From positions 2,105 to 66,104 of the forward strand of contig JAHFLF010000003.1 in NCBI GenBank assembly GCA_023255625.1: a stretch of DNA of 64,000 bases, read 5' to 3'. The stretch comes from Candidatus Harrisonbacteria bacterium (lineage in GTDB: Bacteria > Patescibacteriota > Minisyncoccia > UBA6257 > 1-14-0-10-44-23). The notes below the pieces were generated by a model. The model was given only the letters and a program-made list of their open reading frames with translations, had not been told where the DNA came from and made no database searches. A program made the position numbers and the translations under genes. Shown here one piece after another: positions 19,597 to 24,812 of this stretch. How positions within the stretch are numbered: the first letter of the stretch is position 1; each line of letters starts with the position of its first letter.

Positions 19597-20117
19597 CACG
19601 ATATTCTTGCGAATACTTTTCCCCTCTCACGAGGAGCGTAGACTATATCTTGACCCACCCTAAATCGCTTTTGCGACCGGGTAAAGGGTCTCGGCATCTT
19701 ACAAATGCAGCCCTGTCTGCGAAACATATCGCAAACTTTCTGGAACTACATAAGTCCGCCCGTTATCCCGCTGTTAGCGGAACCGGAACAAGTCGTTACG
19801 GGGTCAAGCGCGAAATACGCGCAAGTTGAAAGTTTATCAAGTTTATAAAGTTATAAAGTAGAAACGGAAACCCGCATCCACTTGATGAACTTTACAAACT
19901 TTCAACTTTACAAACTTGCGTGCTTTGCACGCCGACTTCCCACGGTATTGTCTTATTACTTTTCTGGTCCTCAAGCTTGTACGCCTTTGGCGTATAAATT
20001 GTACCACGCGTTTGAGGACTAACTCTCGCTTGGTTATCAACAGACCAGACCGTCATAAGATTCCACCGTTATTAGCCGAATTTTCATCACGCATTACTGC
20101 ATGAAGTAGCAAACTTT
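19597..20117 (-). ncRNA. group I intron A (ORF-less, ~521 nt) in the 23S sarcin-ricin loop region (between U2656 and A2657, E. coli numbering, inferred)
   Basis: P7/P9.0 core AAGATATAGTCTACGC on the minus strand. Removing 19597-20117 reconstitutes CCTAGT|ACGAGAGGACCGG. It contains a copy of the AAGTT composite palindrome (19806-19933). Confidence 0.6.
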
Positions 20118-20705
20118 ACTAGGATCGACTCTCCTCCGATACCATACGCCTGCAACAGATAGAGACCAACCTGTCTCACGACGGTTTGAACCCAGCTCAC
20201 GTGCCCTTTTAATTGGCGAACAGACAAACGCTTGGGAGCTTCTTCACCCCCGCGCTAGGGCGAGCCGACATCGAGGTGCCGAGCGTTGCCGTCGATAGGA
20301 ACTCTCGAGCAACACCAGCCTGTTATCCCCGGGGTAACTTTTATCCGTTGTCTTTGTGCTTTCTATAAAGCAACATCGGGTCACTAAGTTCTGCTTTCGC
20401 ATCGGCGCGACTTGTAGGTCTTGCCGTTAAGCCAGCATGTGCCTTTACACGTTCAGCCCGATTTCCATCCGGGCCAAGCTGACCTTAATAAACTCCTCCG
20501 CTACTCTTTAGGCTTGTTGTTAGTTGCATGCATCATTTCTGTGCATCGCTTCATGTCGCCATGAAGGTCAGACTATATCTTCAGCATATCCGGATATGAT
20601 TGCTGTTTGGCGTATAGTCGTTGAGGACTCTCTTATTGAAGCTGAAAGAAGGAGTGAAATAAATAATTAATACATAATAACTACTTCACGTCCACGCGAT
20701 GCGTG

Positions 20706-20781
20706 TGGTGGGCTCTGAAGGACTTAAACCTCCGACCTCCTGGATTTCAACCAGGTGCTCTAGCAGCTGAGCTAAGAGCCC
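20706..20781 (-). ncRNA. tRNA-like structure 1 inside intron B: full cloverleaf with a Phe(GAA) anticodon arm and encoded CCA, but the D/T tertiary invariants are altered
   Basis: Minus strand: GGGCTCT TA GCTC AGCTGCTA GAGC A CCTGG TTGAAAT CCAGG AGGTC GGAGG TTTAAGT CCTTC AGAGCCC A CCA. C19 and U56 replace G19/C56. T-loop is TTTAAGT. Confidence 0.5.
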
Positions 20782-20797
20782 ACTTGTTCGCATTTTT

Positions 20798-20889
20798 TGG
20801 AGCGGGCGAGAGGATTCGAACCTCTACCCTATCGCCGCCAAAGCCCTTGCGGGCTCAAGGGGCTTGCCCTGCCGTTAGACCACGCCCGC
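20798..20889 (-). ncRNA. tRNA-like structure 2 inside intron B: class II-like (long extra arm) with canonical acceptor, D and T arms but an aberrant anticodon region
   Basis: Minus strand: GCGGGCG TG GTC TAACGGCAG GGC A AGCCCCTTGAGCCCGCAAGGGCT ... AGAGG TTCGAAT CCTCT CGCCCGC T CCA. U8, GG in the D-loop and T-loop TTCGAAT are present. No 5-bp stem plus 7-nt anticodon loop can be drawn. A GCAA-tetraloop hairpin AGCCC/GGGCT occupies the region. Confidence 0.4.
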
Positions 20890-21407
20890 TCCGTTACAAC
20901 ATTGCTTGCGATTTTCCTCCTTCTTTCAACTTCAATAAGGTTGCCTGCTGATTGTCCGCATCGATCTTGAATTTTTACCCTTTTCGACAAGAGGTATCAA
21001 GATATGCCCGGATATTCCAGCATATAGCCAAATTTTTTACCGTTAACCCCCATATGCGCAGAGGCACATATATACTTGAGGATAACGCCCCATTAAAACT
21101 GCCCACCAGGCACTGTCCCGCGACGTTTTTGCCGTCGAGGTTAGAATCTAAAATTTTACAGATGGCTGTTTCATTGTTGGATCCATGTCTCCCGAAAGAG
21201 ACACTTCAAATCCTCGCCACTACGCTACGCAGTAAAATCCTAGAGCCAATACCAAGCTACAGTAAAGCTCCCGGGGTCTTTTCGTCTTGCTGCAGGTACC
21301 CAGCGTCTTCACTGGACTCGCATTTTCACCGAGCTCTTCGTTGAGACAGTTCTCCACTCGTTACACGATTCGTGCGCTTCGGAACTTACCCGAAAAGGAA
21401 TTGCGCT

Positions 21408-21956
21408 CACTATTGTTACTATCCGCCAGCTTGCGGACGGATGAATATTTCTATTCACCTCTATGCATTACTGCACAGGTCGGACTATATCTTCATATAT
21501 GCGTTATCAGGCGCATACTGTTCGGCGTGTAGTCTCTACAGGGTCATATTGAAGCTGAAAGAAGGATGCGAAGTGTATCGCTACTCCTTCGTATCCGCGC
21601 GGAAGGCGCGAAAGAGAGGTGACGGGTCTCATGTATTTACCCGCATTGCAATAAAGACTCGTAGTCTTTAATCTTGAGGCAACCGGCTCGCCCCGAATTG
21701 CACTGCAGCCCTTGCGGGTTCTGCAGGAAGCAGCCATACCATCCGAAGGCAACAGGCTCGAGTAGTCTGGTGGACGCTGTGCGCCACTCGAATCTCTTCC
21801 GCCTACATCGGAGCTAACCCTTGCTTCTCACACCCCTCTCATTTTCCTTCTTTCAACTTCAATAGACTTCCCTCGGTATTGTCCAAGACAAAATTTCCTT
21901 TCCTATATTCTTGGATGTTCACCGATATAGCCAAATTTTACTAAGGCAAGCAATTC
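21408..21956 (-). ncRNA. group I intron C (ORF-less, ~549 nt) at 23S helix 69, site L1917 (inferred)
   Basis: P7 3'/P9.0 AAGATATAGTCCGACC plus P9 hairpins GGTGAATAGAAATATTCATCC and TCCGCAAGCTGGCGGA. Removing the intron joins ...TAACTATAATCGTTCTAAGGT|AGCGCAATTCC, which matches the E. coli sequence CUAAGGU|AGCGAAAUUCC. Confidence 0.65.
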
Positions 21957-22391: not shown

Positions 22392-23595
22392 TATTGCTAA
22401 CTTACGGCCGCTTTTTTGCCGAGTTCCTTAACGAAGATTCACTCGTTCCCCTGAGGATACTCTCCTCACCCACCAGTGTCGGTTTACGGTACGATGCACA
22501 TGTTCTAAACTTAGAAGTTTTTCTTGGAAGGCTATTCTGCTGTATTAGTCTTGGAAAACCAAAACCTTATCGGAACGCGCGCACTACTACATTAAAGTAA
22601 GCTACCCGGATTTACCTGGATAACAGTGCTTATCGTCCTAAACGCCAAACCATTAAGGCGCACAGCTCTATGTCCTCCGTCACTCCATCGCACAAACATG
22701 CGCGGGCCGGAATATTAACCGGCTTCCCATTAGCTACGGTTCTCACCATTGCCTTAGGATCGCCTAACCCGCGGTTGATTGCCATTGCCGCGGAAACCTT
22801 GGATTTTCGGGGTACGCGTTTCTCACGCGTATTGTGGTTACTTGTGCCAACATTCTCTCTTCCAAACGCTCCACGGGCTCTCACGAGTCCCGCTTCACAG
22901 CTATATTCGTCCTTCAACGAATGATTGGAATGCTCTCCTACCGCGCCACCTGATAAATCAAGTGACACCCGCAATTTCGGTACTATGTTTAGCCCCGGTA
23001 CATTTTCGGCGCAGTCGCCCTCGAATAGTGAGTTGTTACACACTCTTTAAAGGATGGCTACCTCTAAGCCAACCTCCTATCTGTCTATGGGAAACTACTA
23101 CCTTTAACACTTAACATAGATTTAGGGACCTTAATTTGCGATCTGGGCTCTTCCCCTCGCGACCATGGAGCTTTGCCCCCACAGTCTAACTAGCTAGACG
23201 TTTTATGTGAGTATTCGGAGTTTAACTGAAATGTCGCCCTTTCGGGCTGTACACCTCAACTAGTAGCTCTACCCCTCACATGATGTCTCTAGCCGCTAGT
23301 CCGAAAACTATTTCGGAGAGAACCAGCTATTACCAAGCTCGATTAGCTTTTCACTTCTTATCCCAAGTCATCCCAGGGTTTTGCACAACCCACGAGTTCG
23401 GTCCTCCATAGGATTTTACTCCTACTTCAACCTGCTCAGGACAAGCTCGCCTTGGCTTCGGGTCTTATGTATGCCGCTTATTGTCGCGCTATTAACACTC
23501 GGTTTCCCTACGCCTCCACCGCCGAAGCGGCTTAGACTAATGCGACACACATAAACTCGTTGGCTCATTCTTCAATAGGCACATAGTCACCCCAC

Positions 23596-23735
23596 GCGCA
23601 CCTCACTGCTGTGACGTGCGCAATTTTCAATTACCAATTTTCAATTTTCAAACAATTTTGAAATTAATCAATTGTTTAGAAATTAGAAATTAGAAATTAG
23701 AAATTGCGCACTCTCACGACAGTGAGATGCGCGCT
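23596..23735. repeat. Insertion in 23S helix 25 region: AT-rich cassette (same family as 7519-7622 and 57325-57435) closed by GC-rich inverted repeats
   Basis: gcgcacctcactgctgtgacgtgcgc | aattttcaattaccaattttcaattttcaaacaattttgaaattaatcaattgtttagaaattagaaattagaaattagaaatt | gcgcactctcacgacagtgagatgcgcgc. Confidence 0.6.
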
Positions 23736-23935
23736 GGGGGCTCCTATTCATTGTAAGCGTACGGTTTCAGGTACTATTTCACCGCCCTTACCGGGCTGCT
23801 TTTCACCTTTCCCTCACGGTACTTGTTCACTATCGGTCATGAAGTGTATTTAGCCTTACCGGATAGTACCGGTATGTTCCCGCATAGTTTATTTGCCACG
23901 CGGTACTCTAGAAATCTCATATTGCTACAAGACCA

Positions 23936-24195
23936 GTCCTGTATGTCACATATGCCGCGAAATGCGGAAGCATTAAAATTGTCGAGACCGCGACGCGAGT
24001 GGCGAGACATATGGCTATGCCATAAGCTCGACGCTCGCAACAAAGGTATCGACAATTTTAATGCTTTGACGGGCTAATTTTTGCCTGATTCTTTGTTGCT
24101 TGTCGTAGCCATAGCTAAAGCTATTGTCTACTCCGCGCGCCTAGAATCATGCCAAAATTCGCACCGCCGCATTCGTGTCATATGTGACATACAGG
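23936..24195. repeat. ~260-375-nt insertion in 23S domain I (between E. coli positions ~200 and ~460) with nested perfect inverted repeats
   Basis: Outer 17-bp inverted repeat: cctgtatgtcacatatg (23936-23952) / catatgtgacatacagg (24179-24195). Inner 16-bp inverted repeat: gcattaaaattgtcga (23967-23982) / tcgacaattttaatgc (24046-24061). There is an rRNA-length excess of about 375 nt here. Confidence 0.6.
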
Positions 24196-24694
24196 ACAAA
24201 AAACGAGAGTCAGAACTGTTTTCGCATACTGGGCTATCACCATCTTTGGCGCGTCTTTCCAGGCGCTTCTGCTAACAGACTGTTTTTTAACTCTCTTTTT
24301 ACAAATCACGCAGCAGCCGTAAAGCTGCTCCGTGAAAAGTAAAAGTGTTTTTCTCTAAACCCCCAAAAGATTTATTGCTAAATCCCTCGAGTTTGGGCTC
24401 TTCCGTTTTCGCTCGCCGCTACTAACGGAATACAATTTGTATCTTTTCCTCTGGTTACTGAGATGTTTCACTTCACCAGGTTGACGAACGCATCACTTAT
24501 GTATGCGAACTATGTCGGGTTACGACATAAGGTTTCCCCATTCGGAAATCTCCGGATCACAGGTTGCTAACACCTCCCCGAAGCTTATCGCAGCTACGCC
24601 ACGTCCTTCATCGCCACTTCATGCCAAGGCATCCACCGTACGCCCTTTAACGCTCTGACGCATGTCAGAGCTCACTAACCACATAATGCTCAAG

Positions 24695-24812
24695 CGCGCA
24701 TAGCGCGCAAGTAACAAGTGGCACAAGTGAAAACTGGTAAACAAGTGAATGCAAATCCACTTGCCTACTCGTGTCTACTTGTTTCTACTTGCGAACTGCG
24801 TGCTACGCACGC
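24695..24812. repeat. AAGTT composite palindromic element, copy in the 23S leader
   Basis: gcgcgcatagcgcgc aagtaacaagtggcacaagtgaaaactggtaaacaagtgaatgcaaatccacttgcctactcgtgtctacttgtttctacttgcgaactg cgtgctacgcacgcc. Confidence 0.55.

Follow-up and report, generated by a model that had tools for sequence, protein, structure and literature searches.

The window analysed here, a 64,000-nucleotide (64-kb) stretch of contig JAHFLF010000003.1, contains a 23S-5S rRNA operon in which four homologous copies of a palindromic element are found. Each copy of this element, designated family A, is 115-135 bp long and consists of two arms of tandem 8-9-nt AAGTT units connected by a short loop. Since a further copy is present in the 23S rRNA gene of another organism (L007), since related rods occupy the intergenic spacers of a third genome (L058), and since filled as well as empty sites are found, the copies are best described as one repeat family spread by copying and not as four separate expansion segments, which is what the original prediction had proposed from the window alone. 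[quoted passage not shown]

The window is bacterial DNA with densely packed genes. Among the homologues of its MetRS, those with names belong to Candidatus Harrisonbacteria, Liptonbacteria, Wildermuthbacteria, and a "Patescibacteria group", by which the host is assigned to the Candidate Phyla Radiation (CPR)/Patescibacteria of the Parcubacteria type. The operon is located on the minus strand, and no 16S gene is present anywhere in the window. The 23S rRNA gene (19350-24659, minus strand; Rfam LSU_rRNA_bacteria, 1867 bits; 3' end approximate) has its mature 5' end at 24659 and is lengthened to ~5.3 kb by three introns and a number of hairpin inserts; if its 3' part is searched alone, the large-subunit (LSU) alignment reaches 19360, which is model position 2912 of 2925. 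The whole gene is bracketed by a 24-nt perfect inverted repeat on the minus strand (5' strand, 24818-24841; 3' strand, 19242-19265), which pairs in a cofold of leader and trailer and is the expected pre-23S processing stem.

A profile built from the four family A copies (c1 to c4) and run over the window with nhmmer matches just the positions 19797-19941, 21999-22133, 22247-22384, and 24687-24821 (E 1e-32 to 3e-41). A gapped motif composed of clamp, units, and opposite arm finds the same four sites, with 0.00 expected from 100 shuffles, in full agreement with the sites originally predicted. Also in agreement, no copy is found outside the rRNA operon in the window; a fifth copy is missing from the window and from the 9 kb beyond it (about 75 kb of this genome). 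All four copies are on the minus strand. Copy c1 (19806-19933; nhmmer E 7e-41) is part of group I intron A and occupies the peripheral stem whose counterpart in intron B carries tRNAs, exactly where introns B and C have a 20-bp stem with other cargo; directly after it, at 19934, follows GACTTCCC.., which is also found directly after the long stem of intron C. Copy c2 (22005-22134; E 1e-38) forms the tip of helix 68 (H68), where, at LSU model position ~1892, cmscan counts 121 nt and the consensus has 12, and c3 (22251-22381; E 3e-41) forms the tip of the hairpin after H62, that is, of H63, with 116 nt versus 4 at model position ~1760. Copy c4 (24694-24813; E 1e-32), the most diverged one, belongs to the 5' leader of the pre-23S rRNA, where it is flanked by the mature 5' end and the processing stem; it abuts the latter, and the leader/trailer cofold places its rod beside that stem. 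Replacement of the H63 and H68 regions and the further copies in an intron and the leader had accordingly been recognized from the outset. The borders given at that time were roughly right, but a start of c3 at 22262 leaves out its left GC clamp (22251-22265).

The identity between c1 and c3, the copies in intron A and H63, is 107/125 (86%), close to the ~85% claimed originally; it is 82% between c2 and c3, 74% between c1 and c2, and about 75-79% for c4. The copies have in common not only their units but also their non-repetitive parts, namely the GCGYGC clamps which are found at both ends of the rRNA copies, the loop, which in c1-c3 is AGTAGAAACGG, and the order of the unit variants. A separate origin of every rod, in which short A/T-rich units were multiplied locally by slippage or by extension of a hairpin and came to look alike by convergence, could draw on the fact that the arms are tandem 7-9-nt near-palindromic units and that the AAGTT, AATTTC, and ATAGAAA types introduced below are alike in architecture. 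It would be very improbable, given these shared parts, the full-length profile matches with E 1e-32 or better, the 82-86% identity among c1-c3 (c1-c2 excepted), and a motif over clamp, three units, and opposite arm that has zero chance expectation. That the assembly of the metagenome produced the copies artificially, as a chimera or by collapsing a repeat, is hardly conceivable. The contigs of relatives do break inside the 23S gene, but the whole rRNA operon with all four copies is matched at 99.96% in an independent 183.7-kb ENA contig (ERZ27297344 k141_5146887), and a contig from a second sample extends through intron A. Furthermore, the copies cannot be collapsed reads because they differ from each other by 14-26%.

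In the rRNA sense, each copy folds into one continuous rod of 50-58 bp, with free energies of -58.9 kcal/mol (z -7.6) for c1, -69.3 kcal/mol (z -9.3) for c2, -75.6 kcal/mol (z -8.5) for c3, and -70.1 kcal/mol (z -9.4) for c4; overall, the range is -59 to -76 kcal/mol and z -7.6 to -10. The left clamp pairs with the right clamp in the minimum-energy as well as in the consensus folds. The consensus fold of c1-c4 together with the L007 copy comprises 51 pairs, 17 of which are supported by compensatory double changes. The composite of three hairpins postulated in the original prediction was considered and had to be abandoned, as minimum-energy, centroid, and consensus folds all yield one rod. The small GC hairpins, which are possible because GCGCGC is self-complementary, are only an alternative fold. 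In the clamp of the L007 copy, local hairpins reach at most 4 bp versus 8 contiguous bp in the rod, and only the rod is convincing there. The rods themselves have no match in Rfam, where only the host segments A, B, and C match, namely to group I introns.

Classical IVSs are known from Salmonella, Yersinia, Campylobacter, Leptospira, Coxiella, and Alphaproteobacteria, and their usual sites in 23S rRNA are H9, H25, and H45. The rods in the rRNA, whose distribution may likewise be sporadic, match them in size, shape, and helix-tip position: ~100-150 nt (or longer) of extra sequence replace a small helix-tip loop by an extended stem-loop. In contrast to the classical sites, AAGTT copies are found at H63, H68, and, in L007, H15. 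They further differ in that several homologous copies reside in one operon, including its intron and leader, that homologous copies are found intergenically, and that the arms are arrays of short units. In the IVSs described to date, an extended stem-loop takes the place of a helix tip and is cleaved by RNase III, and their occurrence is sporadic; horizontal transfer has been suspected, and their origin is unclear (PMC4990558). The 23S genes of CPR bacteria are rich in insertions, about half of which are group I introns, while the short remainder without open reading frames (ORFs) has been termed "uncharacterized" and is probably IVS (PMC11270868, PMC9297842). The elements of the window share with the CPR rRNA insertions of Tsurumaki et al. 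2024, which the authors suspect to be IVSs, the host group, the length below 200 bp, and the position at the top of stem-loops; the difference is that repeat families of defined architecture can be distinguished among them here, with links to intergenic copies and to filled and empty sites (PMC11270868).

A sister family, family B, which is built of AATTTYC/GAAATTA heptads, likewise has an rRNA copy in the window (23590-23745, minus strand; core 23612-23715). It is an inverted repeat (nhmmer E 9e-21) with a fold of -67.2 kcal/mol (z -11.6), and cmscan places its insertion after LSU model position ~583, which we take to be H25 and thus a classical IVS site. Two further copies are intergenic. 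One of them (57326-57430; E 3.6e-23) fills the spacer between dprA and topA, as judged by Pfam matches of the flanking genes. The other one (7513-7618; E 3.2e-24) is located between a DUF8128-like gene and a PQ-loop gene, and its site is empty in three relatives (L003, L004, and L005), in which the orthologous spacer measures 4-12 nt versus 106 nt in the window. The rRNA copy of family B possesses a long extra GC-rich clamp, which the intergenic copies do not have. As to target-site duplications, an ambiguous TAA surrounds 7513-7618, while none is seen at 57326-57430.

Beyond this genome, a scan of 185,579 species genomes with the family motif returned one real match, which is in the 23S gene of an uncultured bacterium (L007, KR_bin-0332); the other candidates from the collection scans (L006, L008, and L010) turned out to be chance or weak matches. 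With respect to the rRNA, the L007 copy is oriented like the window copies, and it is 97/114 (85%) identical to c3, while the rRNA core of L007 is merely ~69-89% identical to that of the window. It sits in an H15-like hairpin after GCCCAAAC; H63 of L007 carries an unrelated insert of ~140 nt, and H68 no insert at all.

This distribution bears on the possibility that the rods of H63 and H68 represent genuine expansion segments of a bacterial ribosome. These would be kept in the mature 50S subunit, where they would form long arms that serve its structure or recruit factors, and their likeness would be maintained by gene conversion or by a common protein binding AAGUU units. Such a role would be compatible with the position of the rods on surface helices, including H63, which is the site of the eukaryotic expansion segment ES27L, also a long rod protruding from this helix; with compensatory changes that keep the pairing; with units which, at ~85%, are more conserved between organisms than much of the rRNA; and with the one orientation of all rRNA-linked copies. 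It appears unlikely nevertheless, as the homologous intron and leader copies never reach the ribosome, L007 has its copy on a different helix and neither of the two window rods at H63 and H68, intergenic spacers elsewhere are filled by the same unit family, and a near-perfect duplex of ~55 bp is normally a substrate in bacteria with RNase III. ES27L is retained, vertically inherited, and functional, while the element described here has paralogues in non-ribosomal contexts. Vertical inheritance at one helix is contradicted by the paralogues in the intron, the leader, the other helix, and intergenic DNA.

The intergenic members of family A were recognized in metagenomes. A 3.8-kb contig without rRNA (L009) carries hairpins of AAGTT units in two spacers of an ABC transporter operon. 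Longer contigs of the same organism (L058 and L059) represent a third CPR genome, in which 21 kb contain about seven intergenic spacers with AAGTT rods. A GCGCGC..GCGC-AAGT clamp like that of the rRNA copies stands at the start of one of these rods, and two rods are interrupted by another palindrome nested in them. A second family of repeats, ~140 nt in length (CCCATTCGTCATCCCGTGCCCGACC...GGGGACACGGGATCC...) is observed nested in the arms of AAGTT rods at L058 ~9790-9935, ~15880-16020, and 5370-5443. In a sister genome (L060, with a permease 90% identical), the orthologous spacers hold rods of AATTTCT or ATAGAAA units; in another one (L061, 84% identical), some orthologous spacers measure just 12-48 nt, and spacers with rods in L058 and L060 are empty. 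Examples of orthologous spacers are L058 5322-5443, L060 5488-5617, and L061 5898-5909. From spacers that are either empty or occupied by differing unit types, recent turnover is deduced. Across unit types, the loops often carry a ACGACGACG/CGTCGTCG motif, and this includes the rRNA copy of L007.

No copy of family A or B is present in about 100 kb of closer relatives of the window (L003-L005 and L011-L013), so the distribution appears sporadic; the 23S genes of these relatives are assembled at their 3' ends only, and contigs with homologues of the amidohydrolase break inside the 23S gene. Viral contigs gave 0 matches to the full family motif. A motif for unit arrays recovered 44 viral loci, which were rejected since only one arm matched weakly; they are plain tandem 9-mers and not rods, many of them in giant-virus bins.

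The original prediction had also assumed a preference of the element for rRNA. As a property of the family this does not hold, because copies are abundant outside rRNA: AAGTT rods are intergenic in L058, and family B of the window comprises one rRNA copy (H25) and two intergenic ones. What persists of it is restricted to this genome, in which all four A copies lie in the operon in one orientation, and local spread within the operon is possible for this reason.

A further possibility is that the rods are domesticated processing signals, that is, sites for a double-strand-specific nuclease punctuating long transcripts, the spread of which was selected and not selfish. Their tasks would be to separate the cistrons of mRNAs, to free the pre-23S rRNA at its leader, and to break open selected helices of the rRNA. 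In accordance with such a function, c4 abuts the 23S processing stem, intergenic copies take up the whole distance between a stop codon and the following start in co-directional spacers, extra GC clamps are found on the rRNA copies and are mostly missing from intergenic ones, and rods recur at orthologous spacers of sister genomes despite the differing unit type. Yet the same sites are empty (4-48 nt) in L061 and in relatives of the window, by which the rods are marked as dispensable, and at least one intergenic copy is opposite in orientation to the rRNA copy of L007. Selection for processing is thus given little credence as the cause of the spread.

According to the favoured reading, that of dispersed repeats with an IVS-like existence in rRNA, the family would copy itself at the DNA level in a copy-and-paste manner, within as well as between genomes, and copies would last only where a ~55-bp hairpin is harmless. 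Tolerated places would be the tips of 23S surface helices (H63 and H68; H15 elsewhere), the peripheral stem of an intron, the leader, intergenic spacers, and gene ends. Upon transcription in the rRNA precursor, a copy would become a long, near-perfectly double-stranded rod, the equivalent of a classical 23S IVS. Such rods would probably be RNase III substrates. RNase III would cut them out without religation, as a near-perfect duplex of ~55 bp is a standard substrate of this enzyme, and what remains, the GC clamp, would serve as a stem that joins the 23S pieces. Copies in the intron and the leader would be lost together with the intron and the leader themselves.

Several points weigh against this scenario. 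No transposase or other mobilizing gene is linked to the elements in the partial genomes available, and no RNase III signature (ERLEFLGD-like) is present in 300 kb, a sample too small to be informative; none of ten mid-sized ORFs encodes RNase III. Excision of the rods is a step that we purely infer. The restriction of all four A copies to the rRNA operon in one orientation (~p 0.06, with small numbers) is unlike random insertion. At c1-c4 there is no target-site duplication, the flanks being complementary and not direct repeats. The ends of family A copies, with their GCGYGC clamps and units, are inverted repeats solely because the whole element is a palindrome, and no defined terminal inverted repeats separate from the rod are present. 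Finally, strand asymmetry was tried as a test for selection at the RNA level and rejected; the rRNA sense folds better by 8-17 kcal/mol in c1-c4, yet the comparison is confounded. Whichever copy of the window is folded, including the intergenic B copies beside plus-strand genes, the minus strand gives the more stable structure, and as it wins regardless of transcription and in line with the GC skew, better folding of the sense strand is unusable as evidence. GC skew is negative on the plus strand in every sub-window to 62 kb and positive only in the last 2 kb (cumulative ~-2.9), and the genes of the window are mostly on the minus strand; strand comparisons of hairpin stability are biased by this strong uniform skew and gene strand bias.

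In comparison with known repeats, the elements share with MITEs and other palindromic repeats (Correia/NEMIS, RUP, ERIC, and Rickettsia palindromic elements) the non-coding nature, the length of 100-150 bp, the hairpin, the multiple and mostly intergenic copies, and the cotranscription. Multiple dispersed copies with filled and empty sites are documented by L058 and by family B, with empty sites in L003-L005 and L061. Differences are the lack of a target-site duplication, of distinct terminal inverted repeats, and, in the partial genomes, of a cognate transposase, as well as the construction of the whole element as one unit-built palindrome. The original alternative of a MITE-like element or an IVS is supported in part, by dispersed copies, filled and empty sites, IVS-like size, rod shape, and helix-tip sites. 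Rickettsia palindromic elements also enter functional genes at permissive sites; insertion into rRNA helices is unusual for all of the repeat families named. REPs and bacterial interspersed mosaic elements (BIMEs) are extragenic palindromes in spacers at gene ends and form genome-specific families (PMC3733652), and the rods resemble them in both of these traits. The elements described here are, at 115-135 bp, 3-4 times longer than REPs, which measure 20-40 bp and bear a GTAG or CGTC tag, and they are unit arrays. No terminal GTAG/CGTC tag is found on them, and no RAYT gene was seen in the partial genomes.

The three group I introns of the 23S gene, all on the minus strand, are related to each other, with intron A having paralogous segments in common with B and C. 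Intron A (19597-20116; RF00028, 22.1 bits, E 0.01, a weak match) is located next to the sarcin-ricin loop at approximately E. coli 2655-2657. It is 520 nt long and absent from L004, in whose 23S gene position 19596 is joined straight to 20117, whereby its borders are fixed. Intron B (20549-21075; RF00028, 54.9 bits) corresponds to approximately E. coli 2256-2262, and intron C (21461-21966; RF00028, 48.1 bits, E 1.6e-10) to L1917, with the exon junction UAAGGU^AGCG as read from the sequence. The cargo of the peripheral stems is different in each case, with an AAGTT rod in A, tRNAs in B, and a 278-nt insert in C. Intron B carries tRNA-Phe(GAA) at 20706-20781 (minus strand, rRNA sense; 67 bits), which is the sole tRNA-Phe of the window, and a 92-nt tRNA with a long extra arm at 20798-20889, assigned as Lys(CTT) by ARAGORN (Rfam, 41.9 bits); both are enclosed in a 29-nt stem (20632-20660 with 20911-20939). 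As cargo of an intron within an rRNA gene, tRNAs look unusual. The insert of intron C (21567-21844), flanked by the stem arms 21547-21566 and 21845-21864, has no Rfam match at E<=1. At L004 53-370, an insert of ~318 nt is found which corresponds to window position 20273/20274 (approximately E. coli 2500), where the window has no insert. From this insert and the missing intron A it follows that intron content differs at ~73% amino-acid identity in the neighbouring gene.

Other hairpins and inserts were noted in the window. At 23930-24200, a nested palindrome of ~270 nt (arms 23936-23961/24172-24197 and 23968-23989/24045-24066), unrelated to A and B, makes up an insert of 295 nt within a hairpin of 23S domain I, at LSU model position ~427. 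An insert of about 29 + 80 nt in the H15/H16 region at 24290-24360, after GCCCAAAC, is located in the helix that holds the AAGTT rod in L007, with a differing sequence. A hairpin at 2609-2692 with 40-nt arms of TAACTCA-like units lies within an ORF (2363-2803; 146 aa, no Pfam match); either it is a rod inserted in a coding region or the ORF is mis-called. Two near-perfect hairpins between convergent or adjacent genes, at 50229-50312 (37-nt arms, 92%) and 8348-8425 (30-nt arms, 93%), are unrelated to A and B in sequence and may be terminators.

With regard to the surroundings of the operon, for which window positions 24842-26116 were compared with L011-L013, MetRS is followed by TatD and LeuRS in all three MetRS-bearing relatives examined, while the window has the 23S-5S operon instead; the rRNA locus has therefore been rearranged. 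The MetRS homologues of relatives are not beside rRNA. On the same contig, ~1-1.5 kb past the right end of the window (L062 12411-12868), a perfect stem of ~22 bp (AATTCAATCCTGAGCGGAAGGG...) encloses a tRNA-like gene, which is partially duplicated upstream. A 230-aa protein encoded at 47802-48494 shows only N-terminal matches to HTH_23, HTH_28, and HTH_38, domains which are frequent in the N-termini of transposases.

Summarizing, members of the same palindromic families occur in two settings, in 23S helices, where they form IVS-like inserts, and between genes, where they are ordinary repeats whose sites may be filled or empty. The origin of IVSs has been unclear since 1990, and no actual repeat family was ever connected with the idea that transposition left them behind (PMC4990558); in a literature search, no report linking IVS-like inserts to intergenic repeat families was found. 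With families present in both contexts, the origin of IVSs becomes testable in CPR genomes, and palindromic repeats that fill intergenic gaps are suggested as the source from which rRNA intervening sequences come. [quoted passage not shown] The repeats probably add to the breaks in rRNA assemblies and to the failures of primers and probes in these lineages. Should the rods be retained, a helix expansion of such size would be unusual in a bacterial ribosome. A bolder reading, doubtful when all of its parts are taken jointly, is that some Patescibacteria harbour undescribed modular palindromes, or unit arrays, as the direct source of rRNA IVSs. These rods would be made of 7-9-nt near-palindromic units (AAGTT, AATTTC, and ATAGAAA) with partly shared loops, would seek hairpin tips and gene ends, nest in one another, and saturate spacers, and different unit types would burst in different sister genomes. 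If this were true, the origin of IVSs would be traceable to a living repeat family, and the rods may serve genome-wide as punctuation marks for a double-strand-specific RNase.

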